This document shows, one piece after another, positions 12,662 through 35,454 of a stretch of DNA of 35,454 bases (the stretch's first letter is position 1; each line of letters opens with the position of its first letter). The DNA is taken from NCBI GenBank assembly GCA_964383425.1, contig CAYLGX010000003.1, positions 1-35,454 on the forward strand. The letters run 5' to 3'. The position numbers and the translations under genes are program-made. Below the pieces are notes generated by a model. It ran no database searches. It saw only the letters and a program-made list of their open reading frames with translations, and had not been told where the DNA came from. Source of the DNA: Candidatus Woesearchaeota archaeon (lineage in GTDB: Archaea > Nanobdellota > Nanobdellia > Pacearchaeales > GW2011-AR1).

Positions 12662-12986
12662 AATTATTGTATATTGATTTATCTACTACAGTTATTGGGC
12701 CGAGTGTGGAATTTGTTGTTTCTGCAGCCTCATTAAAATCAAAATAAAGTGAACTGGCCGTAGGTCTAACTCCGTAGGGTGTGCTTTCAGTAGAATTAGA
12801 GAATACTAAATCGCCGGATGTTGAAAATAAAAAGTATGCTGCTGGTGCAATGATCAAAGCGCAAAGAAGAATAATTAATGCTATGATCAAAACAACTTTC
12901 AATACGGGTTTAAAATTTTTAAATTTATTTTCTTTCTTTTGTTTTTTCCCGATTTTTCCCGATTTTACTTTTTTTTGCTTTTTCAT
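12645..12986 (-). CDS. 113-aa membrane-anchored 'leader-only' paralogue of the giant protein N-terminus
   Basis: ATG at 12986. A Lys-rich n-region is followed by TM VVLIIALIILLCALIIAPAAYFLF. The protein aligns to the first ~100 aa of the giant protein: ILL.ALIIAP, L.(V/F)SNS, DFN, NST and the exact octapeptide SIYNNYGT. It stops 2 codons after that octapeptide, where the first LamG domain of the giant protein begins. It overlaps the giant ATG by 17 nt and the upstream gene by ATGA. Confidence 0.6.
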   Translation of the reverse strand: MKKQKKVKSGKIGKKQKKENKFKNFKPVLKVVLIIALIILLCALIIAPAAYFLFSTSGDLVFSNSTESTPYGVRPTASSLYFDFNEAAETTNSTLGPITVVDKSIYNNYGTLD

Positions 12987-13279: not shown

Positions 13280-13597
13280 ATGAAACCTAAACCTCTGGCC
13301 AATTTAGAACAAGATTATGATCTGGAACTAGCTCGGGCAGTAAAAGAAATAAAAAAACAGAAGGCAAAACGAGTTTTACTCCAGGTTCCTGACTTTTTTA
13401 AGCCGTATGCTACTCAAATTGCAGATAAACTTGAAAAAGCTACAAAAGTAGAAGTCTTTATTTATTTTGGTTCTTGCTTTGGAGCCTGCGATATTCCTAC
13501 GGATGAGGCCAAGGCAGTAAATTGCGATATGATTATACAGCTAGGTCATTCTAACTGGGACTTTAAGGATAAAAAAGAGATTCAGGTATTAAAGTAA
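13280..13597 (+). pseudogene. dph2: N-terminal domain-1 fragment of diphthamide synthase Dph2 (truncated or split gene)
   Basis: AKRVLLQVPDFFKPYATQIADKLE..VEVFIYFGSCFGACDIPTDEAKAVNCDMIIQLGHS matches the Dph2 N-terminal domain, including the GACD cysteine motif. The ORF stops after 105 aa, whereas archaeal Dph2 is about 330-350 aa. Only 146 nt of AT-rich spacer follow before the next gene. Confidence 0.7.
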
Positions 13598-16076: not shown

Positions 16077-17207
16077 CTAAAGTTTACGAGGCAATTCATA
16101 ACCTACTCTTGCATCTATTTTAAATCCACTATTGCCTATTTCTCCTGCAGCATTTGCTAGGTGCCATTTTTTTCCACATTTTTCCAAATATTTTGAATCT
16201 ATTTTAAATCTTACTTCAATTCCTTCGCAATTTTCTATTGGTCGATTACCTGTCTTTATTTGCAAGTCCCTTAGCCACATATTACTACTTTCTTCTCGAC
16301 TAATTCCATCCAGAGTATACATATATGCCTGTGCAAGTTGACCTGCAACAAGGATAGAATCTACTGATGAAAAATGAGCGGTGCAGACTTTATCTTTTTT
16401 AATTGACCAGTCTCCGCCAGCATAAGTTAAATCTACTTTAGCAGTTATTTCTTTTTCAGCTAGATTTATTTCAACATTATGAATATTATGCCGAGTATTT
16501 CTATATCCATTTGAAAAAAATCTTTTTGTCGGGTCTCCAAGTATATCTTCAATCTTATCAAAATAGACTACTTCTCCTTGCTTTTTGCCGCCATAAGTAG
16601 TACTGCTGGCATCAAGATCTAATGCGTTAACTATTCGATCTAATCTTTCTTGGACGCTTCCACCTATAATGACTGGATTAAATCCTAATTCTCTCCAAGC
16701 TCCAAGGAGTATTTCATCTGCCTTTTTTCTAAAATCTTCTGATACCGGCCTATGTCCGTCTTTAGGTAAGGCAAACTCTACAGGTAAATGAATAATATCA
16801 GTATAATTTTGTTTAGCATGTCGTTTTACTATTTCTCCGAATGTTTTCATTCCAAATTCATATTCTTTAGAAATTAATTCTGTTCCCTTGCCCATTGCAC
16901 CCTCTACTTGTCTTCCATATCCATATGCCCATTCATGAAGCGCAGAACCATCAGAGATAAAACCACTCATAACTGCTCGTTCGAGCGCAACTCTTTCCCC
17001 GTATCTAATTATTCCCAGTTGTAATAATTCACTTTCTCCGCATTCTTCTAGTTTTTTTCCAGGAAAGGTTTCCGGCAAGATATCTCTCATTCCCCTAGCT
17101 ACCGCTTTTGGAATACCCGTAACTCTTGCTAATTCATTTGTTATTGTGGATTTTCCAGTTCCGTAAGTTCCAGAAATTACAATTCTTTTATTTAAATTAC
17201 TAGCCAT
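16077..17207 (-). CDS. P-loop NTPase/kinase (AAA_28 / NadR-kinase-like) fused to a ~170-aa C-terminal domain of unknown family
   Basis: ATG at 17207. Walker A is ISGTYGTGKST. The N-terminal ~200 aa resemble AAA_28-type ATPases (..IPKAVARG.., FISDGSALHEWAYG, IIHLPVEF.LPKDGHRP, GGSVQERL). I do not recognise the C-terminal half (RFFSNGYRNTRH...HFSSVDSILVAGQLAQAYMY...). Confidence 0.65.
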   Translation of the reverse strand: MASNLNKRIVISGTYGTGKSTITNELARVTGIPKAVARGMRDILPETFPGKKLEECGESELLQLGIIRYGERVALERAVMSGFISDGSALHEWAYGYGRQVEGAMGKGTELISKEYEFGMKTFGEIVKRHAKQNYTDIIHLPVEFALPKDGHRPVSEDFRKKADEILLGAWRELGFNPVIIGGSVQERLDRIVNALDLDASSTTYGGKKQGEVVYFDKIEDILGDPTKRFFSNGYRNTRHNIHNVEINLAEKEITAKVDLTYAGGDWSIKKDKVCTAHFSSVDSILVAGQLAQAYMYTLDGISREESSNMWLRDLQIKTGNRPIENCEGIEVRFKIDSKYLEKCGKKWHLANAAGEIGNSGFKIDARVGYELPRKL

Positions 17208-17881: not shown

Positions 17882-18526
17882 TTAATCTACCACCTTGGCT
17901 TCAAGGCCATTATTGTTTAGTATTTGAGCTACTTCGCTATGATCTGCTCTTCCAAAATCTTGTGAAGAACCGTAAATTTCAAGTGTAGGTTTTCCGAACA
18001 TACTTTTATTTACTTTGAATCTTCCTCCGCTGATATTGCTAAGTTTGTTTCCAGTAATTCTTTCTACTTCTGCCACCATATCTCTGTGCATTCCAAAACC
18101 GTATATGGCTGCAACTACTTTTTTACCTTGATCACTTGTGGCAGTGATATATTTTAGACTAGGAGTTATCTTGGCTCCAAAAAATCTATCAAAACCATGA
18201 TTCCATTCAGCTTCCTTTTTAGTAGGTAATTCTAAAAGTAAATCTACCTTTTCTCCTTTTGAAAACTGACAATATTTATCTTCGAAAGTATATTTTGCGC
18301 AAGGCAGCGTTGCTGCACGCGCTCTCATTTCTTTTTCAACATCATATCGATAGTTAGGTAAAACTTCCCTTAGCTTATCTGCGAAAGTATATCCTCCGTA
18401 GATCGAATCAAAAACTTCTTGATAGATTGCTTTTGCTAAAAGTTTTGATTGCTCTGCCAAGTTTAATCTAAATGTTTTATATTGTGGTGTTTCCATTTTG
18501 TTTTCTCCATGAGTATTTTTACTCAT
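17882..18526 (-). CDS. Hypothetical protein (214 aa), first gene of the three-gene operon
   Basis: ATG at 18526, with an alternative ATG at 18496 (METPQYK). The gap to the next gene is 1 nt. No TM segment or signal is seen, and I recognise no family. Confidence 0.6.
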   Translation of the reverse strand: MSKNTHGENKMETPQYKTFRLNLAEQSKLLAKAIYQEVFDSIYGGYTFADKLREVLPNYRYDVEKEMRARAATLPCAKYTFEDKYCQFSKGEKVDLLLELPTKKEAEWNHGFDRFFGAKITPSLKYITATSDQGKKVVAAIYGFGMHRDMVAEVERITGNKLSNISGGRFKVNKSMFGKPTLEIYGSSQDFGRADHSEVAQILNNNGLEAKVVD

Positions 18527-21317: not shown

Positions 21318-22544
21318 ATGAAAATGTTTATAGGTTTAATTATTTTAGCTCTAAGTTTTACTTTTGCAAGCGCAGATATTTTTATTAATGAAGTTGAACT
21401 TAATCCAGAAGGCACTGACAGTGCAAATGAATGGCTGGAGTTATATAGTGATTCTTTTGTAAATCTTACTAACTGGGTTATAAGTAGCAGCAATGGTAGA
21501 AATATGACATTTAATGCTTCATTTAGCGGATTTTATATTATTAATACTTCGACTAATCTTTTAACCAATACAGACAACAATCTCCTACTCAAAAATAGTA
21601 GCTCTGGTATAATTTTTTCTTCTATAAATTTAACTGATTCATTAGATGATGCTCGTACATGGCAATATTGTAGCGGTAGCTGGAACTTTTCAATTTCTAC
21701 TCCTGGCGCAGCAAATAACTGCACAATTACCAGCAATAATACTAACTCCACTACAAATTCAACAAATAATACTTGTACTGGAAGTTATACTTGCACTTCT
21801 TGGACTTCGTGCTCTAGTAGTCTACAAACAAGGGCCTGTACCAATACTAGCACCAGCTGCGTGATTAGTACCCGAACTGAAAGCCAAAGCTGCACTAGTT
21901 CTTCAGATATTAGTCTTGATTTTAGTTGGAATGAAGAAGAGATAATAAATAATCGTGTGTTTAATATTACTCTTGAAGCAAATAATTTGGAAGATATGAA
22001 ATATGATATAAAAGTATGGCTTGAATCCGATGAAACCGATCTTGATTTAAAATCAGAGACATATGATGAAGATTTAGAAACCTGGAAGTCATCTAATTAT
22101 TTTATTGAAAAATTCTTTAAAGGGGACGGAGATAAAACAAAAGAAATCCAGATCAGGATAAAATCCAGTTATACTGATTATGCTGGGGAAGCAACAATCT
22201 ACTTTAGGCTAAGGGAGAGTGATTCAGAAAAGACTATAACTACTATTGATGACTCTATTGAAATTATTGTTTCCGAAGAGGAAGAGATACAAGATAGCGT
22301 AGAGACTAACTCAATACCAACTGCTTATGCAATATCTAATTCTGATTCAACAAGTGAAAATAAACTAACTACTACTTCCCTAATTAAGAAAACTGCTAAA
22401 ACAGAAGATATAAAAATGCCAGAAAATTCAATTTATTTGTCTAGAACAGAACAAATAAAGAGATATGCGCCTTATGCCTTTTGCATACTATGCATTTTTT
22501 TATTAGCTTTGATTATAATAGACTCAAAAAAACATAAAAACTAA
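21318..22544 (+). CDS. Secreted lamin-tail-domain (LTD) protein with a Cys-rich motif, an acidic region and a C-terminal TM anchor
   Basis: A signal peptide MKMFIGLIILALSFTFASA is followed by the LTD signature IFINEVELNPEGTDSANEWLELY. The Cys motif is CTGSYTCTSWTSCSSSLQTRACTNTSTSC. The C-terminal TM is FCILCIFLLALIIID. Confidence 0.75.
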   Translation: MKMFIGLIILALSFTFASADIFINEVELNPEGTDSANEWLELYSDSFVNLTNWVISSSNGRNMTFNASFSGFYIINTSTNLLTNTDNNLLLKNSSSGIIFSSINLTDSLDDARTWQYCSGSWNFSISTPGAANNCTITSNNTNSTTNSTNNTCTGSYTCTSWTSCSSSLQTRACTNTSTSCVISTRTESQSCTSSSDISLDFSWNEEEIINNRVFNITLEANNLEDMKYDIKVWLESDETDLDLKSETYDEDLETWKSSNYFIEKFFKGDGDKTKEIQIRIKSSYTDYAGEATIYFRLRESDSEKTITTIDDSIEIIVSEEEEIQDSVETNSIPTAYAISNSDSTSENKLTTTSLIKKTAKTEDIKMPENSIYLSRTEQIKRYAPYAFCILCIFLLALIIIDSKKHKN

Positions 22545-23156: not shown

Positions 23157-24443
23157 TTAATTTTTAGTCAATCCTGTTCGAACTTCTTTAGGTTCGGATT
23201 CAATTCTTTTCTTGTAATCTTCGCTTCTTTTAGAAATTATGCCCTTTGTTAGTTCCTTAAAATTCTGACCTTCCTTAGACTTATTGTATAAAAACCAGCC
23301 ACCCACTCCGAGGATTATAAGTATTAGTACAATCCATACCCATTTGCCAGAAGAACTGCTGCTTTGACAGGTGCCTAGGCAGCAATATCTATTAGAAGAA
23401 TCCATCTGTGAAAGGGCTGAACAAGATTCTCCAACTAAACAGGTTTTTCCGTTCATTTCAGCGCATGTTTTAACTACAATTGGAGGAGTAGTAGAATTTA
23501 CCTCTAAAGGATTTTTTGTGATTTTAATGTTCACTGGAACAATTACTGAATTTTTTCCCATGCTTATATTGATAAAACTACTCTCGGCTTTTTTCCCGAT
23601 AATCTTTACCTGAGTAACATAATTACTAAGCATTTCTACAAGAATGTTTGGGCTTGAAGAAGAAACCACTACATTTCTAATAGATGAACTTCTATTTTGA
23701 ATATTAATTTCATATAACTGCACTTCATCTACTTGCAATGTCACATTTAATTCAGTTAAACTTAAATCAAACGTATCTGCTAAATCCGGATCGTCAAGAG
23801 TAGTATTGGTTTGGTTTACTGGTGCAATTTTTTGAGTAATAATTATGGCCGGAATAGAATACGCCCCTATTTTTATTTTGCTCTCAGTGATGTTAGTTAT
23901 ATTTGCTATTGAGATATAAAATGTTTTAAGGCCATCTTTACCTTGAACTATGGACTTAGTTTGCACAAAACCTGCTTCTGGAAATTCTACGGTAACATCT
24001 TGATTTCCGCTATAAGCAATAACGTCTATTGAAAAATCCTTTGAAGTATAGATAAATCCCGGACTGTAACTTAGATAAGAGTTATTTGATTCCACTACAC
24101 TAAAACTTGCTTCAACAGTATCGCTAGATTCATGAGTCCCAACATAATGCTTCGTATTTTCTATCCTTAATAAATAATTCCCAGTAGATTCGGGAGCAAT
24201 AGCATAAACGTAATATTTATCGTTATATTTTACAAAATAAACCATATCTCCGGTAGGATGAACTGATCCTACTTGGTAAATATTAATATTTTCTTGAACC
24301 AAATTCTCAATGAATCCCCCAGTAATTTCTGCTTGCAAAGTTTCCATAGAGTTATAGCTATTTTTTTCTAAATTAATATCTATTGTAGCCGAGATAAAAC
24401 TAAGTGATAAAATTAAAACTATCAATATACCTGCTTTTTTCAT
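23157..24443 (-). CDS. Secreted surface protein (428 aa) with a juxtamembrane Cys module and a C-terminal TM anchor
   Basis: ATG at 24443. Signal peptide MKKAGILIVLILSLSFISA. The Cys module CAEMNGKTCLVGESCSALSQMDSSNRYCCLGTC maps to about 23343-23465. It is followed by TM WVWIVLILIILGVGGWFL and a basic tail. Confidence 0.75.
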   Translation of the reverse strand: MKKAGILIVLILSLSFISATIDINLEKNSYNSMETLQAEITGGFIENLVQENINIYQVGSVHPTGDMVYFVKYNDKYYVYAIAPESTGNYLLRIENTKHYVGTHESSDTVEASFSVVESNNSYLSYSPGFIYTSKDFSIDVIAYSGNQDVTVEFPEAGFVQTKSIVQGKDGLKTFYISIANITNITESKIKIGAYSIPAIIITQKIAPVNQTNTTLDDPDLADTFDLSLTELNVTLQVDEVQLYEINIQNRSSSIRNVVVSSSSPNILVEMLSNYVTQVKIIGKKAESSFINISMGKNSVIVPVNIKITKNPLEVNSTTPPIVVKTCAEMNGKTCLVGESCSALSQMDSSNRYCCLGTCQSSSSSGKWVWIVLILIILGVGGWFLYNKSKEGQNFKELTKGIISKRSEDYKKRIESEPKEVRTGLTKN

Positions 24444-24676: not shown

Positions 24677-26491
24677 CTACATTCCTTTAAGTTTCTTTAA
24701 AGTAGCATCTAGCTCATTGTCTTTTGGAAAAGGTCTAGGTGAAACCGGAACTTGTCTTTGTCCCATTCCCTGCATAGGCGGTCTTTGTTGTGCCGCAACT
24801 GGTTGCTTATTGAACTTATTTTGCATCGTAAACCACCACATCTTTATTTTATCTTTGAAAACAATTGCTAAAATTATGATTATAATTAATATCAATAACA
24901 ACCATACCCACCAGTAACTTGGAGAGGTTTTAGTTTGACAACAAACTTCGCCAACAGCGCCACAGTCTACATTAACTGATTGTTCACTTGAAGAACAACT
25001 TAGTTTACAGCTATTTCCCAAGCTTACACAAGGAATCACATCTGGCTCAACTACTGGCGATTCAATACAATCGCCTACGCAACATTGACTAGTATCTGAA
25101 GCAAGAACTTCACTGCCACTACATTCTTCATTTGACAAACATTTTTTTCCTAACTTTTCTGAACAAGTAGTTTCTACTACTTTTTTATCACAGCAAATTC
25201 CGCTACCTAAACAATCGAAATTTTTACTAATATCAGTTCCGCCTAACTGATCACATTGTGTAAAAGAAGTACAAGAGTAACCCGGAAATTCCTCGCATTT
25301 ACTTCTAGGAGTTAAAGTTCCAGTTGAAGAAGCAGGTTTTGGATTTGTAGAATATAGTATGAATGCAGTATCTCTTATTGAATTTTGCCAACATCCTTCG
25401 CCCTGAACCTTTGGATCAAGTAAATAGGAATTTGCTTTTTCTGCTTGCGATGTGGATTTTCCGTATAATGAAAGTAATGCTAGGGCAGTATCATAATATC
25501 TTTTAGCAGTATCGGTTATTTGCCAAAAACCAAGTGTATTTTGAGCATTTGAAATTTCTGAGAAATATTCATCATATCCAGTAATGGAATATAAAAATGT
25601 ACTTGGAGAAAATCTTTTACTATTAGTATCTTCGTAAAGAGTAATTAAATAAGGGAGAAACTTTTTAAGAGAATCTTTATTTGTAGAAGCTTTTTGAAGT
25701 GCTAGTGTTGCCCATAAATTTCCCTCATAGTTGCATGCAGTACCTTGTTTAAAACAAAGTGATTCTATTTTTTCAGTAGTTTTTCCATTTGCGGGAGCAG
25801 TATTTGTTAAATCAGAAACATAATAGGTTGAGCCTGAAGATCTTCGATAAAATGTGGAAGTTAAGAAATCTTGATCGCAAGTAATTTCGAATTGTTTACC
25901 TATACAAGAATTAGAAACTTCAAGCCAGTATCCGCCATAAGCTGAAACAAAACATCCCCCAAAATTTCCAGTAACTTTTTTATCTTGTTCAACAGTCATA
26001 GTTTTTGTTAGATTGTCATAATTGATTTTACATTGAGATTTATTAGTAGTGTCAATTTGAAGATACCAAACTAAATCAGTAGAATAAGAAGTCTGATTAA
26101 GAAGCCAGTTCTCAATATCCTTGGTATCTTTTCTGATGTAATTATATGCTAGCAATACTTGTGAAGTCTCTTTAATAGTACAGGCTGATTTTGGCCAACA
26201 GTTATTAGTATCTTTTCGAGATTCAATTTCATCTTTAATATCTGCTTGTCTTGTAGCATCATAACCTAGCGCCATTAAAGAAAAAGTTAATTCTTCTAAA
26301 GTTAGATCCTTATATTTGTTAGTTTTTGCGTCGATAGAATTTTGTAAACATTTATATGATTTTTCAAAACCAGTAAGATTAGCAGTAGAAGTTGACTCAT
26401 TTGCAGCTGTTGTAAATGAAATAGAAAGTATTGCAAAAGCTAAAATCAAAGATAATAACACCACTCCCCTTTTTTTATTCATAGACAACAT
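24677..26491 (-). CDS. Secreted surface protein with alpha/alpha-toroid (prenyltransferase/squalene-cyclase-like) repeats, three Cys modules, a TM anchor and a Pro/Gln-rich cytoplasmic tail
   Basis: The track start at 26566 is a TTG that overlaps the Cas4-like gene. In-frame ATGs at 26491 (MLSMNKKRGVVLLSLILAFAILS) and 26482 give a normal signal peptide. Repeat-like motifs are NCWPKSACTIKETSQVLLAY, GFWQITDTAKRYYDTALALLSL and GCWQNSIRDTAFILYS. The Cys modules map to about 24917-25300, followed by TM YWWVWLLLILIIIIILAIVF. Confidence 0.7.
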   Translation of the reverse strand: MLSMNKKRGVVLLSLILAFAILSISFTTAANESTSTANLTGFEKSYKCLQNSIDAKTNKYKDLTLEELTFSLMALGYDATRQADIKDEIESRKDTNNCWPKSACTIKETSQVLLAYNYIRKDTKDIENWLLNQTSYSTDLVWYLQIDTTNKSQCKINYDNLTKTMTVEQDKKVTGNFGGCFVSAYGGYWLEVSNSCIGKQFEITCDQDFLTSTFYRRSSGSTYYVSDLTNTAPANGKTTEKIESLCFKQGTACNYEGNLWATLALQKASTNKDSLKKFLPYLITLYEDTNSKRFSPSTFLYSITGYDEYFSEISNAQNTLGFWQITDTAKRYYDTALALLSLYGKSTSQAEKANSYLLDPKVQGEGCWQNSIRDTAFILYSTNPKPASSTGTLTPRSKCEEFPGYSCTSFTQCDQLGGTDISKNFDCLGSGICCDKKVVETTCSEKLGKKCLSNEECSGSEVLASDTSQCCVGDCIESPVVEPDVIPCVSLGNSCKLSCSSSEQSVNVDCGAVGEVCCQTKTSPSYWWVWLLLILIIIIILAIVFKDKIKMWWFTMQNKFNKQPVAAQQRPPMQGMGQRQVPVSPRPFPKDNELDATLKKLKGM

Positions 26492-26550
26492 AGTGCGGTT
26501 GTATTTAAAAGACTTTCGATTAATTATGAGGAGAGTACGAATTTGCCAGA

Positions 26551-27363
26551 TTAGATCTTCATGCAATCTTCTTGCAAGTCACATTTGGCACATTTACTAA
26601 AATTAGATAGTATTGGCGGCGGGGGACTTTTTCCTAAATTTCTTACTTCTTCTGCAAGTTTTAGAACATTATCCTTATGATCCTGAGTAATATCTATTTC
26701 TTGCTTATTAGCACCAGATTCAATAAATCCCCTACATATTTTTTGTTTGTACATGTCTTCAAGAAGCATAGCATACGCAGTTAATTGTAATTCATCAGAA
26801 TAAAACACTTTTTCGCCTATTCTAGTTTTAAGCTCACATGGAATAACTTGGCCTGTTTTCTTAGATACTTCAATACGATCTACTCTGCCGCGAAGACCAT
26901 AAGCTAAAGATTCTACCCTCAGCTCCGAAATATAAAGAGTATCTAGGTTCGCCCATAATTCTTCTTTAATAAATCCCCGATCTAAAGATTTTTTTATAGA
27001 CTCTATTCTTATTTTTAAATCGCTCGAAAAATCATGCAAGGTAGTTTTAAGAATTTCCGCGGGGTCGAGCCGCATAGATTCTAGAAGAGCGAGATGTTGA
27101 ATAAATACATTTTTAGCTAACGCGGTTAAATAATCTTCATAAATTAAAACTAAATCTAATTTATCATAATTTTTTTCTAGCGTACAGACAAGTTTTTCCT
27201 CATTCTTAGAAAATAATTCTAAAATTTCGTGCTTAATTTTTCCAATAATCATCTTTGAATTTGGAGGAGCAGATAATTTTAAAATTTTAGTAAGAAATAA
27301 CTTCCTAGGGCAATAAAGATAAGAAGTAATATCAGTTATACTAATTAAATTATTTTTTTGCAT
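26551..27363 (-). CDS. Cas4-family PD-(D/E)XK exonuclease with a 4-Cys Fe-S cluster signature (no CRISPR context)
   Basis: ATG at 27363. N-terminal Cys in YLYCPRK. Nuclease motifs are RGRVDRIE ... CELK and QLTAYAMLL. The C-terminal CAKCDLQEDC is a C-x2-C-x5-C motif. Confidence 0.8.
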   Translation of the reverse strand: MQKNNLISITDITSYLYCPRKLFLTKILKLSAPPNSKMIIGKIKHEILELFSKNEEKLVCTLEKNYDKLDLVLIYEDYLTALAKNVFIQHLALLESMRLDPAEILKTTLHDFSSDLKIRIESIKKSLDRGFIKEELWANLDTLYISELRVESLAYGLRGRVDRIEVSKKTGQVIPCELKTRIGEKVFYSDELQLTAYAMLLEDMYKQKICRGFIESGANKQEIDITQDHKDNVLKLAEEVRNLGKSPPPPILSNFSKCAKCDLQEDCMKI

Positions 27364-29847: not shown

Positions 29848-29901
29848 GAAAACGTTTATAAAGAGTAAATAATATTATATAATACTAGATAATATTAAGT
29901 A

Positions 29902-29925
29902 TTATTTAGTAATACGGAGTAATAC
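29902..29925 (+). promoter_or_regulatory. TATA-like box overlapped by a direct repeat AGTAATAC-GG-AGTAATAC (candidate RHH operator)
   Basis: ttatttag lies at 29902-29909. agtaatac occurs at 29908-29915 and again at 29918-29925, ending 2 nt before the RHH ATG. Confidence 0.35.
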
Positions 29926-29927
29926 TT

Positions 29928-30065
29928 ATGAAAGAGAGGATATCTGCAACTATCGAACCTGAGACTAGAAAGAGAATTGAGAAACTACTAGAAGTAGGAG
30001 ATTATAGGAATATTTCACATATCATCGAAAAAGCAATACAACTTCTGGAGGAAAAACATAAATGA
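29928..30065 (+). CDS. Ribbon-helix-helix (CopG-like) DNA-binding protein, 45 aa (below the ORF-track length cutoff)
   Basis: Hand translation gives MKERISATIEPETRKRIEKLLEVGDYRNISHIIEKAIQLLEEKHK, a beta-strand followed by two helices typical of RHH. The stop TGA at 30063-30065 overlaps the next ATG (ATGA). GGAGG at 30047-30051 could serve the downstream gene. Confidence 0.65.
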   Translation: MKERISATIEPETRKRIEKLLEVGDYRNISHIIEKAIQLLEEKHK

Positions 30066-30550
30066 TCTGTGTAAATAATGAATTGGAATTTCAGAATTGG
30101 TTTAAAGAGAATTATAAACAGTTTGGCTTCGATAGTATCTCAATATGTAACAATACTTTTCCGGATTTTATAATGATTCAAGAAGGTAAAAAAATTTCAT
30201 TAGAACTTGAAACTTATTCTTCTAATTTTTTACTCCATAAACATGATTCTAAAAAAGTGAATAAAGTACTTTGCATTATTGAAGATATTAAACTAGGTAT
30301 CCCTACATTAATTGCAGAAAATGTTAAATTAACTGAAGATAAAAATAATACGGCTTATTCAATGCTTAGCTTAATAAGGAGATTACTTCAGAAAAGCCCA
30401 GAAGGACTTACTGCTGCAGATATATCCAAAAAATTAGATATCACTAGGCATACTGCATCAGTCGCACTAGCTGAGTTAAAGGGAGCTCAACTGATACGAA
30501 TTAGAGAAGTAGGAAAAGCTAAACTAAATTATTGGGGCGGCAGCAAATGA
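30062..30550 (+). CDS. PD-(D/E)XK-nuclease-like N-terminal domain fused to a winged-helix DNA-binding domain
   Basis: The N-terminal FPDFIMIQEGKKISLELE...HKHD...VLCIIED has restriction-endonuclease-like D/E-x-E spacing. The C-terminal LIRRLLQKSPEGLTAADISKKLDITRHTASVALAELKGAQLIRIREVGKAKLNYW is a MarR/ArsR-type wHTH. ATGA overlaps occur at both ends. Confidence 0.5.
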   Translation: MICVNNELEFQNWFKENYKQFGFDSISICNNTFPDFIMIQEGKKISLELETYSSNFLLHKHDSKKVNKVLCIIEDIKLGIPTLIAENVKLTEDKNNTAYSMLSLIRRLLQKSPEGLTAADISKKLDITRHTASVALAELKGAQLIRIREVGKAKLNYWGGSK

Positions 30551-31308
30551 AACGTTCTAATAAAAAAGCACAGTTAACCCTCTTTGTCATAGTCGCAATA
30601 ATAATTATTTCTGCGCTTACTATCGGACTTGTATATTTTAAACAAACTCAGCAAATTCCAGTAGAAGAAGATTTGCAAGGCTACGTTGAAAAATGTATTA
30701 ATGATCAAGTTAAAATAAGTGAGGCTAAACTTCGTGATAGTAATGGTTATCTTAATTTATCAGATAATTATTTAGTATATTACGGCAAAAAAGTTCCATA
30801 TTTATGTAAGGCTACTGAATTTTATGTTCCTTGTATTAATCAAGAACCAATGTATATTGGACATTTGAAAAAAGAACTTGAAATGGATATTACTCCGAAA
30901 GCAGTAGTTTGTTTTTCTGATTTGAAATACTTACTTGAAAAGAAAGGATACAGTGTAGATGAAGGAACAATGAGTTTAAATCTAGATATTTCACAAAAAG
31001 CAGTTGTAGTAAATATTGATAAAAAATTTAATATTAAAAAAGAAACTATAAGTAAAAGTTATAATAATTTTAAATCAACTCAGCTATCTCCACTTTATGA
31101 TTTAGCTATTACAACTGAGCGAATTGTTAATTATGAATCTACATTTTGTGAATTTGATAATGTGGGCTGGATGCTTACTAATCCAGATTCTAAAGTTTAT
31201 AGATTTGTAACTAGCGACGGAAGTAAAGTTTATACTTTAACAGATAGAATTTCTAATTCTTCAATTAAATTTGCAGTTAAAACCTGCGTAATGCCGGCTG
31301 GAATATGA
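30547..31308 (+). CDS. Secreted protein with a prepilin-like (class III-type) N-terminus, 253 aa from the ATG
   Basis: The track start at 30532 is a TTG. The ATG at 30547 overlaps the upstream stop (ATGA). The N-terminus MKRSNKKA-QLTLFVIVAIIIISALTIGLVYF has a basic stretch, a small residue, Gln and then a long hydrophobic helix. The mature part has paired Cys residues. Confidence 0.65.
   Translation: MKRSNKKAQLTLFVIVAIIIISALTIGLVYFKQTQQIPVEEDLQGYVEKCINDQVKISEAKLRDSNGYLNLSDNYLVYYGKKVPYLCKATEFYVPCINQEPMYIGHLKKELEMDITPKAVVCFSDLKYLLEKKGYSVDEGTMSLNLDISQKAVVVNIDKKFNIKKETISKSYNNFKSTQLSPLYDLAITTERIVNYESTFCEFDNVGWMLTNPDSKVYRFVTSDGSKVYTLTDRISNSSIKFAVKTCVMPAGI
30571..30649 (+). repeat. Copy 1 of the 79-nt leader-coding repeat (partner at 35376-35454)
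   Basis: 75 of 79 nt are identical to 35376-35454, and the last 55 nt are identical without interruption. Identity begins at the CAG (Gln) codon of the putative processing site. Confidence 0.9.
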
Positions 31309-34300
31309 TTCATAAAAAAACTTTACTAGCGGGAATATGTTTTTCAGAAATATTTATGATGATACTTTCTACTTTTGCTTTTGCATTTATGATTGCAAGT
31401 ACACTTGCAGTAACTGCGGTTGCAGCTACTCCTATTGTTGATGCTGCTTCCCCACTAGACTTTACTGTAAAAGGATGTTGTACCCAAGCTAATGATGGAA
31501 GTGTTTGTCAAGATATGAGTGCTGGCGCTGCAGAATTATTATGTAAAAATCCACTTGTACTAACTGATTGTAATCACGTTTCAAATTGTCAGAAAGGATG
31601 TTGTTATAGTAAAGAAGATGGTGTTTGTTCAATGAATTCTCCTAAAGAAAAATGTACAGACAATGGCGGCGAATGGAGCAGTAACGCAATGTGTAATATT
31701 CCTGAATGTTATATGGGCTGCTGCGTGATTAATGATCAAGCTTCAGTTACTAGTTCAAGAGAATGTACAAAACTTTCAAGAGATTATAAAGTAACTAAAC
31801 AACTTATGCCTCTTGATGAAAACGGAGGATGTAGTGCTTATTCTGGCTTAACAAACAAGGGTGCTTGTTTAATTCCGACTGATGATTATTCTGGAGAAAA
31901 TACTTGCCAATCTACAACTAAAGCTGCATGTAATGGAATATTCTATGAAAATTATTTATGCACGGCTCCTGAACTAAATACTGATTGTATGAAATCAACC
32001 AATACTACTTGTTATACTGACGACAGAATTTATTATCAGGATACTTGCGGAAATATGGCAAATGTATATGATTCTACAAAATACAATAGTGTGGATTACT
32101 GGACTTATGTTGAGGACCCTAGATACTCTTGTTCAAATCCTTCTGCAAGTTGCGGAAATTGCCAATATGTCGGCGGAACTAGATGCACTGCTTATGATAA
32201 ATTAAAAGATGCTAAACCTACTTACGGAGATAATGTTTGCAGAAGTCTTAACTGTGATAACGGAAGAAAACATGGAGAGAGCTGGTGTATTTCAGATTAT
32301 AATACTGCACAATTTGGAGCAAGCCCAGTAGGCAGTAGATTCTATCGAGGCATTTGTATGGACGGAGAAATATCAATTGAAACTTGCGCAGATTTTAATA
32401 ACGAAGTTTGTATGGAGGTAGCTAGCGGAAGTTATACTGAAGCTAAATGTCAAACAAATCAATGGAGAAGTTGTCTTGCTGCAAATAATAAACAAACTTA
32501 TGAAGAAATAAAAAGTGAATGCGATAAATACGAACAATGCACTCTTTTTGAAGATATAATTTTTGAAGGATTAAAAACTGAGGCTGGAGAATCTGAAACT
32601 TCGAATGGAACTGCGCCATGGTCAAGCATGCCTGGATTTTTAAGAGTAAATAATAATAAGCAAGGAGCTAGCGACGATGGAGTAGGTAAAGAAGCTAATC
32701 CAGTTGTAGCTCACTGCGTTCCAAAATATACCCCTGGAATGGTTTTCTGGCAAAGTGAATCTGCTACTAAAAATCCTACTACTGCTGCAACACCAACTAA
32801 CGCCGTAGCATCGGCTAACTCAGAATATGGGGGCAGTGTTGCAGAAACAAATGCAATTTGCTCACTAGGAGGATTTGTTTGTATAAATCATTTAAAAAAA
32901 GAAAACCCATTAAATCCAAGTAGTAGCTGGAGTAATGCTGACTTAAATAATTGGGTTTGTAATATTGATTCTAATAATGCTAAATCTGAAACTAGTATTC
33001 CAATATGGATGGCTGGTTTGAATGAAAAATGTAAAATGCTCGGACCATGCGGAATTTCTCCTAACATTGCTGGAGAGATAGGAAATTATGTCGAGGGTTC
33101 TTCTAATTCTTCGATAAAAAGAAGTATGGTTGATGAAAAAAGTAAAACTAAAGATAATCTCGATGTTTCAAAATATAATATTGATAAAACTTATATTGAA
33201 AATTTAGTAGAACGACCCCAAATAAAAACAATTGGATCAATAACAGATAAAGCAGATTCTGCCCTGGCCGGAGATATTAAACTAACAACTGCAGGAAGTT
33301 CTAGCGAAACAATTCCTAGCGCGGGTTCTACTGAAACCTCAGTTACTGCTGCAGAAACTGCTGCACAAGCTGCAATTAATTCACAGAATAAAATGGACGC
33401 AGAAAAATTACTCGGTACATTATTTGGAACTGCGGGATTATTTGGAATACAATCCGTAGGTGGGGCTGGGACAATCTGGACTGGCTCTGAAACAGTTAAT
33501 GCAGCAGGGCAAACAATCACAAAAGGCGGACCTACTATTGGAAAACCTGGCTGGGCAGGACAAGCATCAGCAGCAGCACTAGGTGCATCTGCAGGAGCAC
33601 TACTCGGAGGATTAATTGCAGATAAATGGCTTCATTATTCTCCTGGGAAAACAAAAGCGTTTACTAATGCTATGATGGGAGTAGGAGCAGCAGCAGGAGT
33701 TGCAATATATTCTTATCTTCCCGCAATGATGTCAGATAAAGTTGTCGCCACCTGGGGTACACCCGGCGGTTTTGGTTGGACAGTTATAGTCATAGCAATA
33801 ATTTATGCAATATATTCTTATTATTTTACGGGCGTGGATAATGAGTATTATATTACCGAATATTCTTGTAAAGCTTGGGAACCTCCAGCTAAAGGTGAAT
33901 GTGATGCCTGTAATACTGATGTTAGACCATGCAGCGAATATAGTTGCAGATCAATTGGAAAAAATTGTCAATATTACACGGATCTTGGAGAACCGGGATA
34001 TTGTGCACAAATGACTGATACGGGCAGCGCTACAATAAGTCCATGGCAACAAGTAATTACGGAAGGCCATAAATATACAGATGTAGGAGAAATGAGATTT
34101 AGTATTGCTACAAGTTCTGATAGAGAACTTGATGCTTGGAAAGGAGTTGAATTTGGAATTGTTACTGATAAACCTGCTAATTGTAAAATTGATACAACTC
34201 ACAGAGATACATATGACGAAATGGCAACTAGTTTTACAATTGATAATTCAGATGCAAATAATGTAGAAAATACGCATCATAAAATTGCTATTTCTCCATT

Positions 34301-35348
34301 CGTAACTGCTGGAGGAATTGCACAATCTACATTATCAATGAAACCTGGAGAAAATAATTATTATATTAGATGTAAGAATTTTGCAGGTAGTTGGAATACT
34401 GCAGAGTTTGCAGTAAAAGTAAATGTTGGCCAGGGCCCAGATTTAACTCCGCCAATAATTACTAGTTTTACTCCCGAATCTGGAAGTTATGTAAAATTTG
34501 GAGAGAATATTACTACAATAAGCCTTAATGTAAATGAACCTAGCGAATGTAGATACACTCAAGAAAATAATTTAAGATTTGAAGACATGACTGGAAAAAT
34601 GTCTTGCTTTAGTGTACCTAGTGCTGGAACACTTGGAAACTGGCCTTGCACCGCTACAACTGGAAATTTAACTAAGGGAGAAAATAAATTCTATTTCCAG
34701 TGCAAAGATCATCCAGAATATGAGGCTGAAGAAAAATCTACTCAAAGAAATATTAATCGAGTAAGTAAAGAATACACTGCGAATTTATGTATGGAAGGAT
34801 TAAAAATTATTGATGTTAAACCTGATTCCAAAATAATAACAGGCATATCTCCAATTTCAATAGATCTTGAGGCTACAACTGCCGGATGCATAAATAATGG
34901 AGAAGCAACTTGTGCTTACAGTATTAACAATAAAGGTTATGTTGAATTTTATACAACGAATGGAAAAACACATACTCAAACATTTAGCACAATGATTCCA
35001 GGAAATTATAATATCAGTGTACAATGTAGTGATAAGGCTGGAAATACTGCAGAAAGAAGTGTTCTATTAAAAATAGATTTAGATAATACTGTTCCAATAA
35101 TAACTAGAACTTATGATCTTAATAAAAATTTATATGTTATGACTAATGAAAATACAGTTTGTGCTTATAATAATAATATTTCAACTGCTTGTTCATTTAA
35201 GTTCACAGATAATGTAACTATCATGAGCGGAGAATATTCACTATTGCATACTACTCCTTGGAAAGTAAATCAACCTTATTTTATTAAGTGCAAAGATATC
35301 TACGGAAATACCAACGATGATTGCGCAATAAAACTTAATACTTACTAA
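31305..35348 (+). CDS. 1347-aa cysteine-rich polytopic envelope protein: signal peptide, Cys-rich N-terminal ectodomain, central Gly/Ala-rich TM bundle, and four C-terminal Ig-like repeats
   Basis: The ATG at 31305 overlaps the upstream stop (ATGA). CC-containing motifs are KGCCTQANDGSVCQD, QKGCCYSKEDGVCS and CYMGCCVIND. Hydrophobic segments lie at about 33409-33830 (LLGTLFGTAGLFGIQ, AALGASAGALLGGLIA, AMMGVGAAAGVAIYSYL, FGWTVIVIAIIYAIYSYYF). The four C-terminal repeats end in GENNYYIRCKNFAGS, GENKFYFQCKDHPE, GNYNISVQCSDKAGN and QPYFIKCKDIYGN. Confidence 0.8.
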   Translation: MIHKKTLLAGICFSEIFMMILSTFAFAFMIASTLAVTAVAATPIVDAASPLDFTVKGCCTQANDGSVCQDMSAGAAELLCKNPLVLTDCNHVSNCQKGCCYSKEDGVCSMNSPKEKCTDNGGEWSSNAMCNIPECYMGCCVINDQASVTSSRECTKLSRDYKVTKQLMPLDENGGCSAYSGLTNKGACLIPTDDYSGENTCQSTTKAACNGIFYENYLCTAPELNTDCMKSTNTTCYTDDRIYYQDTCGNMANVYDSTKYNSVDYWTYVEDPRYSCSNPSASCGNCQYVGGTRCTAYDKLKDAKPTYGDNVCRSLNCDNGRKHGESWCISDYNTAQFGASPVGSRFYRGICMDGEISIETCADFNNEVCMEVASGSYTEAKCQTNQWRSCLAANNKQTYEEIKSECDKYEQCTLFEDIIFEGLKTEAGESETSNGTAPWSSMPGFLRVNNNKQGASDDGVGKEANPVVAHCVPKYTPGMVFWQSESATKNPTTAATPTNAVASANSEYGGSVAETNAICSLGGFVCINHLKKENPLNPSSSWSNADLNNWVCNIDSNNAKSETSIPIWMAGLNEKCKMLGPCGISPNIAGEIGNYVEGSSNSSIKRSMVDEKSKTKDNLDVSKYNIDKTYIENLVERPQIKTIGSITDKADSALAGDIKLTTAGSSSETIPSAGSTETSVTAAETAAQAAINSQNKMDAEKLLGTLFGTAGLFGIQSVGGAGTIWTGSETVNAAGQTITKGGPTIGKPGWAGQASAAALGASAGALLGGLIADKWLHYSPGKTKAFTNAMMGVGAAAGVAIYSYLPAMMSDKVVATWGTPGGFGWTVIVIAIIYAIYSYYFTGVDNEYYITEYSCKAWEPPAKGECDACNTDVRPCSEYSCRSIGKNCQYYTDLGEPGYCAQMTDTGSATISPWQQVITEGHKYTDVGEMRFSIATSSDRELDAWKGVEFGIVTDKPANCKIDTTHRDTYDEMATSFTIDNSDANNVENTHHKIAISPFVTAGGIAQSTLSMKPGENNYYIRCKNFAGSWNTAEFAVKVNVGQGPDLTPPIITSFTPESGSYVKFGENITTISLNVNEPSECRYTQENNLRFEDMTGKMSCFSVPSAGTLGNWPCTATTGNLTKGENKFYFQCKDHPEYEAEEKSTQRNINRVSKEYTANLCMEGLKIIDVKPDSKIITGISPISIDLEATTAGCINNGEATCAYSINNKGYVEFYTTNGKTHTQTFSTMIPGNYNISVQCSDKAGNTAERSVLLKIDLDNTVPIITRTYDLNKNLYVMTNENTVCAYNNNISTACSFKFTDNVTIMSGEYSLLHTTPWKVNQPYFIKCKDIYGNTNDDCAIKLNTY

Positions 35349-35351
35349 CTA

Positions 35352-35454
35352 ATGATCTATAAAAATAAACGTGGCCAGCTAACCCTCTTCGTCATAATTG
35401 CAATAATAATTATTTCTGCGCTTACTATCGGACTTGTATATTTTAAACAAACTC
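35352..35454 (+). CDS. 5' end of a second prepilin-like gene (paralogue of 30547-31308), cut by the window edge
   Basis: The ATG at 35352 lies 3 nt after the upstream stop. It encodes MIYKNKRG-QLTLFVIIAIIIISALTIGLVYFKQT. Confidence 0.7.
   Translation, partial: MIYKNKRGQLTLFVIIAIIIISALTIGLVYFKQT
35376..35454 (+). repeat. Copy 2 of the 79-nt leader-coding repeat
   Basis: See 30571-30649. The repeat may continue beyond the window end. Confidence 0.9.

Follow-up and report, generated by a model that had tools for sequence, protein, structure and literature searches.

A lineage-specific envelope gene cluster of Pacearchaeota and Woesearchaeota pairing prepilin-like proteins with giant cysteine-rich membrane proteins under a putative autoregulator

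Introduction

In bacterial type IVa pili, the PilY1/PilC protein and the minor pilins (fimU-pilVWXY1E) represent an arrangement in which several pilin-like proteins are encoded beside a large non-pilin surface protein. In archaea, a "PilY-like adhesin" has been reported for the type IV filament subsystem 4A/B (bioRxiv 10.64898/2026.04.22.720090) and the Sulfolobus bindosome (Bas) assembles sugar-binding proteins carrying class III signals with the small pilin-like proteins BasABC (PMC3047682). Additionally, Thermoproteales possess type IV pilus loci with large Cys-rich proteins, termed "S-layer-like" and "adhesin or minor pilin", which are uncharacterised (Makarova, Koonin and Albers 2016, PMC4858521). 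Here we analyse a locus with an arrangement of this kind, located at the right end of a 35,454-nucleotide stretch of DNA (the window) from a Candidatus Woesearchaeota archaeon (GenBank assembly GCA_964383425.1, contig CAYLGX010000003.1, positions 1 to 35,454), where two genes for predicted DNA-binding proteins are followed by the genes for a 253-aa prepilin-like protein (the "small" subunit) and a 1347-aa Cys-rich membrane protein (the "giant" subunit).

Pacearchaeota and Woesearchaeota, which belong to Nanoarchaeota (DPANN) in the GTDB taxonomy, are among the most abundant uncultivated DPANN archaea and have a minimal metabolism. To our knowledge, no molecular components of their attachment or envelope apparatus are known. 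Pacearchaeota have been described as attached to their hosts with unusual firmness, and pili-like appendages have been reported on ultrasmall cells from groundwater (PMC7906910).

It is well supported, at the level of sequence comparison, that the locus belongs to a chromosomal, lineage-wide and apparently autoregulated envelope operon, in which pilin-like and giant disulfide-rich proteins are encoded as coupled pairs. The four window genes are the regulatory and first structural part of a vertically conserved envelope supercluster specific to Pacearchaeota/Woesearchaeota, which would produce a pilin-tethered surface assembly for contact with cells or surfaces, a reading to which we assign about even chances. 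The cluster is a strong candidate for the cell-surface or host-contact apparatus of these archaea; an appendage or attachment role is a candidate function already suggested by a first-pass annotation made from the window sequence.

Results and Discussion

Gene layout of the locus

The promoter, operator and gene features of the locus are listed below (RHH, ribbon-helix-helix; wHTH, winged helix-turn-helix; BRE, B recognition element).

29848-29862, strand +: BRE/TATA-like promoter element, gaaaacg-TTTATAAA (best BRE/TATA match gaaaacgTTTATAAA; TATA at 29855-29862)
29870-29925, strand +: 10-bp-phased TAATAY array, putative RHH operator, ending in two perfect AGTAATAC copies
29928-30065, strand +: 45-aa RHH protein, predicted operon autoregulator (Pfam RHH_1, orthologue alignment)
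30062-30550, strand +: 162-aa regulator; residues 1-98 (30062-30355) possibly a degenerate PD-(D/E)xK-like domain, residues 99-162 wHTH
30547-31308, strand +: 253-aa small subunit, with a prepilin-type signal-like N-terminus (MKRSNKKA/QLTLFVIV..., predicted cleavage at the slash), a 220-aa globular domain, three disulfides and the C-terminal FAVKTCVMPAGI
31305-35348, strand +: 1347-aa giant subunit (hydropathy and Cys map, homologue alignment)
35352-35454, strand +: 5' part of a second small-subunit gene (small2), MIYKNKRGQLTLFVII..., the start of the next unit; in relatives, small2 is followed by a giant paralogue

The limits of the open reading frames (ORFs) were read from the ORF list and the raw sequence. 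The mechanical ORF list starts the 253-aa gene at a TTG (30532), whereas the 32 aligned homologues start at the position equivalent to the ATG at 30547, which we adopted. Read directly, the three junctions between the first four genes are ATGA overlaps (30062-30065, 30547-30550 and 31305-31308), found at no other same-strand junction of the window. The stop codon of the giant gene (TAA, 35346-35348) is followed by "cta" and then by the ATG (35352) of a fifth gene, which is truncated by the window end and whose first 34 residues (MIYKNKRGQLTLFVIIAIIIISALTIGLVYFKQT) resemble the N-terminus of the 253-aa protein. Near their 5' ends, the two small genes share a 91-nt direct repeat (30559-30649 and 35364-35454; 90% identical, with the last 55 nt identical), which points to a recent duplication or gene conversion. 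The RHH, wHTH, small, giant and small2 genes make up one tightly packed unit, predicted to be transcribed from the BRE/TATA-like element. The first-pass annotation had described this coupled gene chain, which is real: its ORFs, the three overlaps, the 3-nt gap before the fifth gene and the positions of the upstream repeat are all borne out by the sequence.

In a set of 5.8 billion proteins we found 118 for the giant (E = 0 for the best 32) and 35 for the small protein, and the N-terminal domain of the giant matches 1117 representative clusters at E <= 1e-3, so that these ORFs are real genes and not chance reading frames.

Conservation of the supercluster in relatives

Five annotated database loci and 78 loci from GTDB species representatives were surveyed with hidden Markov models built from our own alignments. 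At least 571 matching stretches are present in GTDB species representatives, and, among the matches listed, homologues of the giant occur only in metagenome-assembled genomes labelled Pacearchaeota, Woesearchaeota, Nanoarchaeota or archaeon (including one contig labelled "Paceibacterota" with archaeal neighbours). The supercluster spans ~15-20 kb in at least 78 DPANN genomes and is opened by the four window genes, the window probably holding about the first third of it. An exact-sequence look-up of the window giant returned no record, and the rightward layout given here is that of the relatives.

The cluster is preceded by two surface-protein genes (minus strand), optionally a Cas4-like gene (minus), a primase gene (minus) and the PCNA gene (plus). 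After PCNA come an RHH gene (44-51 aa; 12 loci, including the window) and/or a wHTH gene (60-90 aa; ~30 loci), and then small1, G1 (ectodomain 1, transmembrane (TM) region and ectodomain 2), small2 and G2, the small proteins being ~255 aa and the giants ~1300 aa long. G2 may be fused, or its place may be taken by two separate proteins, one with ectodomain 1 (500-770 aa) and one with the TM region and ectodomain 2 (700-1050 aa), and some loci add a small3 and another ectodomain 1 protein. The downstream units are paralogues of the first one, with 2-4 small/large pairs in tandem per locus, as the first-pass annotation had suspected when it spoke of a repeating unit. The last unit is followed in ~40 loci by four further genes (pA-pD, ~170, 315, 175 and 167 aa), after which lie an HVO_A0114-like wHTH gene (minus strand) and a gene for an S_layer_C protein of ~800-900 aa (25 loci). 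Past the S-layer gene, a 179-aa membrane protein with a weak exosortase/archaeosortase-like match (E = 2.4e-3) and a VTT/DedA-family protein are encoded (L078, 20584-21123, and L077, 10836-11459, both minus strand), in an order kept in several loci. Toxin-antitoxin-type insertions (NTP_transf_2/HepT-like pairs, ParE) were seen between paralogous units of two loci (L002, 18637-19240; L007, 17079-18245).

The pairing of small and large genes is tight. A small gene lies within 900 bp before 136 of 144 ectodomain 1 ORFs, an ectodomain 1 ORF follows 129 of 133 small genes, and the junction distances are mostly -4 (28 cases), +1 (25) and -1 (13). The co-occurrence of the genes in other genomes, on which the first-pass annotation had made its proposal depend, is borne out; the 162-aa fusion found in the window is rare.

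In ~40 genomes, the cluster keeps its place beside PCNA and primase. In L007 (8530-8800), PCNA is not upstream and tRNA-like sequences lie between TFIIB and the first small gene, so the left boundary of the cluster is not universal.

This synteny bears on the view of the locus as a mobile element, provirus or toxin-antitoxin cassette, in which an RHH antitoxin and a nuclease-like wHTH toxin would happen to adjoin unrelated membrane genes. Such a view can draw on the best NCBIfam match of the window RHH protein, a ParD-type RHH antitoxin (E = 2e-5, below cut-off), on the PD-(D/E)xK-like motif in the next gene and on the presence of toxin-antitoxin-like insertions (MNT/HEPN, ParE) inside the cluster in L002 and L007. 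Nevertheless, the RHH gene directly precedes the small gene, with no nuclease-like gene, in 10 of the 12 RHH-bearing loci; the PHROGs search with the four proteins gave no significant match; no integrase or tRNA boundaries were found in the window; and the GC content is uniform across it. Given the fixed place beside PCNA and primase, this explanation is largely refuted by synteny, and we hold it to be extremely improbable.

The regulators and the putative operator

In the window, the distance from the TATA-like element to the RHH ATG is 73 nt, and equivalents ("aaaGGTTTAWATAG") lie mostly ~50-70 nt before the RHH ATG in most RHH-bearing loci (e.g. L017, L036, L056, L074 and L079). The two AGTAATAC copies (29908-29915 and 29918-29925, at -20 to -3 from the RHH ATG) are separated by GG, and the sequence occurs four times in the whole window, versus 1.57 expected. 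The pair encloses a Shine-Dalgarno-like GGAG (29916-29919), which includes the spacer GG; GAGG, GGTGG or AGGGG is found at a matching distance from the RHH ATG in related genomes. As in the window, two nGTAATAYnn copies with 10-bp spacing abut the RHH ATG in L074, L017, L036, L019 and L079, (A)GTAATAY copies lie between the TATA-like element and the ATG in most RHH-bearing loci, and tandem nGTAATAY repeats precede the RHH genes of at least six divergent genomes. Between PCNA and the first small gene of 40 loci, AGTAATA occurs 21 times, versus 8.5 +/- 2.7 (maximum 17) in composition-preserving shuffles, corresponding to 0.90 per kb in this zone against 0.12 per kb in the background. Bacterial-type promoter and terminator scans were uninformative for an archaeon.

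The 45-aa protein aligns end-to-end with Pfam RHH_1 (19.3 bits, E = 1.1e-3, slightly below the cut-off of 20.5), and the same family matches 11 of the 12 RHH orthologues (best E = 2.8e-6), in line with the original RHH assignment. These 12 orthologues have a mean column identity of 60% and share the invariant pattern K-x-R-[IV]-S-A-T-[IV]...YRN-K-S-H-x-I-E-x-A-I. A search of the PDB with the RHH family profile gave nothing significant, only spurious matches to helical-repeat designs.

The conserved operator and autoregulation by the RHH protein have good in-silico support. In the proposed mechanism, the RHH protein would repress its own operon by binding the AGTAATAY copies that lie, at 10-bp spacing, downstream of the TATA box and ahead of the ATG. 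The wHTH protein would supply a second input; in the window it is fused to what may be a degenerate, nuclease-like domain acting as a sensor. An RHH or wHTH gene overlaps the first small gene in about two thirds of the loci with sufficient upstream sequence, so the predicted co-transcription of regulator and envelope genes is conserved and not an accident of one genome. An autorepression operator had been postulated from the window alone, and phylogenetic footprinting supports it, since the repeat is kept in distant genomes. The repeats had also been placed over the TATA-like box: the repeat exists, but its perfect copies sit between the TATA element and the start codon, and whether any copy overlaps a functional TATA box depends on where transcription starts.

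In the 162-aa protein, the wHTH call is upheld by MarR_2 (27.7 bits against a Pfam cut-off of 27, residues 109-150), with additional support from HTH_20 and HTH_11 and from the NCBIfam ArsR/SmtB family (E = 7e-5). The "nuclease-like" label given to this protein is not established, resting as it does on a PD...ExE motif and a weak phmmer match of the N-terminal domain to the arenavirus L endonuclease (E = 0.09). This domain has no Pfam match, and its FPD(35)...ELE(48-50) motif, with the Lys substituted, is kept in the four loci, among 86, that possess it (the window, L025, L001 and L068). A PDB profile search with the 162-aa protein gave nothing significant. Only two relatives of the fusion were found among 5.8 billion clusters, the usual regulator in relatives being a 60-90-aa wHTH or an RHH protein alone.

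The small protein and the accessory pilin-like proteins

The alignment of the small protein with its 32 homologues is characterized by a near-invariant Gln9 (>=90%), six conserved Cys and a conserved C-terminal FAVKTCV[LM]PAGI. In the wider family, the motif [KR]-[KR]-[GAS]-Q-[VIL]-T-[IL]-F-[IV]-I is present at the N-terminus of 132 of 140 members; among these 132, all of which have Q at +1 because the search motif required it, K/R stands at -3 in 121 and at -2 in 113, G/A/S at -1 in 131, T at +3 in 118 and F at +5 in 126. The hydrophobic run that follows has a median of 22 residues. The AlphaFold 2 (AF2) model of the small protein (predicted local distance difference test score, pLDDT, 89.6) consists of a TM helix (residues 6-33), a short unstructured link and three helix-plus-sheet modules.

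The four accessory proteins have N-termini of the same type. Examples of the pA-pD quartet, with class III signal-like N-termini and conserved Cys, are the following:

L006, 19878-22376: pA-pD
L028, 16211-18600: pA-pD
L074, 16137-18545: pA-pD

These N-termini (KGQ-x-x-LSFGMIF, KG-[LF]-[EQ]-x-SFAW-x-F, KAQ-x-KIQQM and K[GA]QEE-x-VGF, respectively) take the form KK[GA]Q or KKG[LF][EQ] and are followed by ~23 hydrophobic residues. In hhalign comparisons, similarity to the small protein, and likewise among pA-pD themselves, is confined to the 30-90 N-terminal columns, and pA-pD were rejected as globular paralogues of it.

Judged from these alignments, the small family and pA-pD have N-termini of the class III (prepilin) signal type. 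Sec-like N-termini are typical of the giant and of the remaining surface proteins of the window (p629, p428 and p408, of 629, 428 and 408 aa), and for this reason the class III pattern is specific to the small and pA-pD families and not the default of the lineage. In Methanococcus, EppA substrates typically carry Gln at +1. The Q at +1 of the small family would fit the Epd/EppA-type "system 1" type IV filament machineries, which have been reported in DPANN (bioRxiv 10.64898/2026.04.22.720090).

The giant protein

The domain organization of the giant, based on hydropathy and the Cys map, is as follows.

31317-31448 (aa 5-48), strand +: TM1
31476-33050 (aa 58-582), strand +: Cys-rich ectodomain 1, starting with three ~40-aa "GCC" modules and followed by a Ser/Thr/Ala linker
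33402-33839 (aa ~700-845), strand +: Gly/Ala-rich TM bundle
33867-34004 (aa 855-900), strand +: seven-Cys knot
34017-35345, strand +: about four C-terminal immunoglobulin (Ig)-like repeats, ending Y-x-I-x-C-x-D-x-x-G-N (weak Big_13)

The description of the giant as a Cys-rich membrane protein is confirmed and extended, with ~60 Cys invariant across 35 homologues (28-48% identity); as the nearest homologue is at most 48% identical, the window represents a distinct lineage. Pfam Big_13 matches the C-terminus of the window giant weakly (19.8 bits versus a cut-off of 27) and the C-terminal part of 20 of the 35 homologues at E <= 0.01 (best 4.4e-6). Both ectodomains, which are acidic, should be extracellular, because four hydrophobic segments, an even number kept throughout the family, separate them. 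In ectodomain 1, N-glycosylation sequons (N-x-S/T) are depleted (2, versus 8.5 +/- 2.5 expected from composition). Sequons are visibly plentiful in the nearby surface protein encoded at 21318-22544. Cys aside, ectodomain 1 is most conserved in the motif D-S-C-G-N-x-A-N-[IV]-Y-D, a possible site for binding a metal or a ligand.

The AF2 model of ectodomain 1 (pLDDT 82.4) gave no Foldseek match at E <= 1e-3 in the PDB (best E = 0.26) or in BFVD, and a PDB profile search with the giant family found nothing significant. A local match to the archaeal Fusexin1 (7p4l; 76 columns, probability 0.47, E = 0.37) was rejected as non-significant. In Pfam and NCBIfam, the giant and its homologues match no S-layer, PilY1/PilC, T2SSF (PilC/TadC/FlaJ platform), transporter, ATPase or lipid-binding family. 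From the window alone, the two envelope proteins could not be matched to a known pilus, archaellum or S-layer component, and neither the sequence libraries nor Foldseek returned a characterised counterpart.

The two large ectodomains flanking a conserved, Gly/Ala-rich region of four helices invite the idea of a machine for exchange or fusion, in which the glycine-zipper-like TM bundle would act as a channel or membrane-active element and the ectodomains would engage the host membrane, for lipid or metabolite uptake or to form a cytoplasmic bridge with the host. Minimal metabolism and host dependence (PMC7906910) would give such a machine a use, and the Fusexin1 match of ectodomain 1 points in the same direction. 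That match, however, is nowhere near significant and extends over just 76 of the 558 residues, BFVD yielded nothing resembling a viral fusogen, no transporter, ATPase or lipid-binding family was detected, and conservation in the giant is lowest in its TM region. We consider this explanation distinctly unlikely.

Split paralogues and the tether model

The split versions of G2 separate the modules of the giant. Each of the 56 ectodomain 1-only proteins has one hydrophobic segment, at its N-terminus, and lacks a C-terminal TM segment, and the 14 examined start with a short Sec-type signal peptide (...VSA/E), followed by CCEKT..GAWCQN; with such a signal and no C-terminal TM, they should be secreted. 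Proteins made only of the C-terminal half have one or more hydrophobic TM segments ahead of ectodomain 2 (37 of 37), and most of those examined keep the TM1 of G1 (E/Q-I-x-x-L-I-x-x-x-F-A-F-S-F) together with further TM segments. In these split paralogues the small gene always precedes, and travels with, the ectodomain 1 gene. This is most simply read as the small subunit binding ectodomain 1 and tethering its secreted form to the cell. TM1, the TM bundle and ectodomain 2 would then be a separate membrane-embedded module, the two modules being fused in G1.

A model of the pilin-tethered assembly can be proposed. The small protein would be inserted in the membrane by its N-terminal hydrophobic helix and probably trimmed, by a prepilin-type peptidase encoded elsewhere, after [KR][GAS], leaving Gln at +1. 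The giant would cross the membrane via TM1 and the Gly/Ala-rich bundle, displaying two disulfide-locked ectodomains on the outside, and the small subunit would bind ectodomain 1 in a 1:1 ratio, acting as its tether in the split paralogues, in a way akin to minor pilins with PilY1 or to the bindosome. The pairs and the four downstream pilin-like proteins might then form a short type IV filament-like or pseudopilus-anchored assembly through the S-layer, whose most likely role would be contact with other cells or surfaces.

A more specific version, rather unlikely but with a real chance of being right, is a new lineage-specific host-contact organelle, with a Sec-secreted, disulfide-locked head (ectodomain 1) on pilin-like tethers, a pseudopilus built by the four accessory pilin-like proteins, a membrane base formed by TM1 and the Gly/Ala bundle and an Ig-like stalk (ectodomain 2). 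If true, this organelle would be a new class of archaeal surface machine for host attachment and possibly exchange.

Weighing the pilin-tethered assembly

Several points weigh against a pilin-tethered assembly for cell or surface contact. In the model of the small protein, Foldseek found no pilin or other fold in the PDB (best E = 5e-3, TM-score at most 0.16), none of 32 small proteins matches any Pfam family, including the pilin families (Pilin_N, Class_IIIsignal, N_methyl), and the pA-pD examples scanned have no Pfam match either, pilin families included. Genes for a type IV filament ATPase, a platform protein or a prepilin peptidase were found neither in the window nor, in relatives, within ~10 kb (five annotated loci) or past the S-layer gene. 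The giant is polytopic and cannot itself be extruded on a filament. Additionally, the strong family conservation, the long invariant motifs and the sequon-depleted ectodomain 1 fit a housekeeping machine better than an adhesin that is host-specific and evolves fast. ATGA overlaps are a common trait of compact genomes, and both the interaction of small protein and giant and the cleavage of the signal are predictions. The small protein likewise matches no NCBIfam (pilin families included) or PHROGs family, and a PDB profile search with its family found nothing significant. The original prepilin-like label holds for the signal of the 253-aa protein (-1 G/A/S in 131 of 132), and Foldseek matched its model to no pilin.

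Two candidates for missing filament components were considered and rejected. A conserved 577-aa gene past the S-layer gene is not a secretion ATPase, having instead a weak Wzt_C-like match, and the upstream p629 and p428 are not filament platform proteins but surface proteins of type I, made with a signal peptide and anchored at the C-terminus.

The same results bear on the locus as a true type IV pilus operon, with the 253-aa protein as major filament subunit and the giant as assembly platform. The class III signature speaks for it, as do the automatic annotation of one small-protein homologue as "Tfp pilus assembly protein PilE" (JGI) and the pili-like appendages on ultrasmall cells (PMC7906910). 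On the other hand, a length of 253 aa and a complex three-module alpha/beta domain, with no pilin fold match, are atypical of a major pilin, an apparent 1:1 gene coupling with a 1300-aa protein is unfit for a polymer subunit, the giant is without similarity to the platform family T2SSF, and no ATPase was found in the window, within ~10 kb in relatives or past the S-layer gene. A true pilus operon is thus highly improbable.

The main rival is a housekeeping envelope scaffold, in which the cluster would supply structural parts of the cell wall or pseudo-periplasm, such as S-layer anchors or spacers or a second wall layer, and no appendage or adhesin, the class III N-termini being simply the anchor type of this lineage. 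The two-component SlaA/SlaB S-layer operon of Sulfolobales offers an analogy. The cluster adjoins an S-layer gene (S_layer_C) and a gene with the weak exosortase-like match, it is lineage-wide, with a fixed chromosomal position and strong sequence conservation, and filament motor genes were not found nearby; the sequon depletion of ectodomain 1 can also be counted in its favour. However, a separate canonical S-layer protein is encoded next door, a sequon-poor ectodomain 1 is unlike typical archaeal wall glycoproteins, the six or more distinct pilin-like families of the cluster exceed a generic anchor habit, and the giant, p629, p428 and p408 are of Sec type, so that class III is not the lineage default. 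We judge the scaffold unlikely.

Neighbouring genes in the window

The window has a uniform GC content of ~32%, and the Rfam and tRNA scans of it were empty. From left to right it contains a LamG-repeat ORF, a CCG and FAD_binding_4 pair, Hjc and three type I surface proteins, and then a Cas4/Dna2-like nuclease, a fused primase and PCNA, the latter immediately upstream of the RHH gene. Among the neighbours, the following were noted:

2-12682, strand -: LamG ORF of >4215 aa, running off the left end, with nine Laminin_G_3 domains (E = 1.6e-170) and sialidase N-terminal-like and clostridial-neurotoxin receptor-binding-like domains; it resembles the giant lectin-like surface proteins that have been reported from other DPANN archaea
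13280-13597, strand +: 105-aa ORF matching the first ~60 of the 302 positions of the Diphthamide_syn profile, which may be a fragment or a split gene
16077-17207, strand -: 376-aa protein, AAA_28 fused to a Pseudomonas AvrD-like domain (E = 1.1e-20), unusual in an archaeon
17882-18526, strand -: 214-aa Janus/Ocnus (phosphohistidine phosphatase) protein (E = 7.8e-9), a mainly eukaryotic family, unusual in an archaeon
21318-22544, strand +: 408-aa type I membrane protein (p408)
23157-24443, strand -: 428-aa type I membrane protein (p428)
24677-26566, strand -: 629-aa type I membrane protein (p629)

The last three have a signal peptide, a C-terminal TM anchor and juxtamembrane Cys-rich modules (C-x6-C-x5-C...CC-x2-C) that recall the giant's "GCC" modules. 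The 629- and 428-aa proteins are mutually related, belong to no Pfam family and are syntenic upstream of the primase in 21 and 28 loci, respectively.

Significance

Our searches of the accessible literature turned up no account of the families or the cluster. The supercluster is built almost wholly of families without an above-threshold Pfam assignment, its two modelled components have no PDB fold match, and it has its own conserved predicted regulator and operator and at least six distinct pilin-like families. The analysis also provides handles for future work, namely a predicted cleavage site, a predicted 1:1 tether/head pair, a putative DNA operator and marker genes. Even if its role is structural and not host-directed, the cluster reveals major envelope components of a large archaeal radiation.

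Comparison with known systems

In its regulation, the locus resembles operons under CopG/Arc/MetJ-type RHH autorepressors, since the RHH gene is the first of the operon that it would control and tandem direct repeats with helical 10-bp spacing lie between promoter and start codon. The difference is in the predicted targets, which are envelope genes here and not plasmid copy number or a toxin.

With PilY1 and its minor pilins, the locus shares a large surface protein with a Sec-type export signal, a split ectodomain 1 gene that follows a pilin-like gene, and four accessory pilin-like genes, of which one is large (~315 aa). Nevertheless, the window proteins have no sequence or fold similarity to PilY1 or minor pilins; moreover, the giant of the first unit is polytopic, the pairs are tandemly duplicated and ATPase, platform and peptidase genes are not linked. 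The likeness to the bindosome lies in globular, non-filament proteins with prepilin-type signals at the cell surface and in small pilin-like accessories encoded nearby. The bindosome locus has its own ATPase and membrane protein (BasEF), and its cargo consists of solute-binding proteins of known fold, whereas here the cargo fold is without match and no ABC transporter is linked.

The Thermoproteales loci are defined by a secretion ATPase and TadC, neither of which is linked here, no homology between them and the window proteins was detected, and they belong to Thermoproteota and not to DPANN. As in the locus described here, archaeal pilin-like genes stand together with two large surface proteins, and nearly all components have multiple conserved Cys, with predicted disulfides. 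These predicted and uncharacterised type IV pilus loci with large Cys-rich proteins (PMC4858521) are the closest published analogues of the supercluster.

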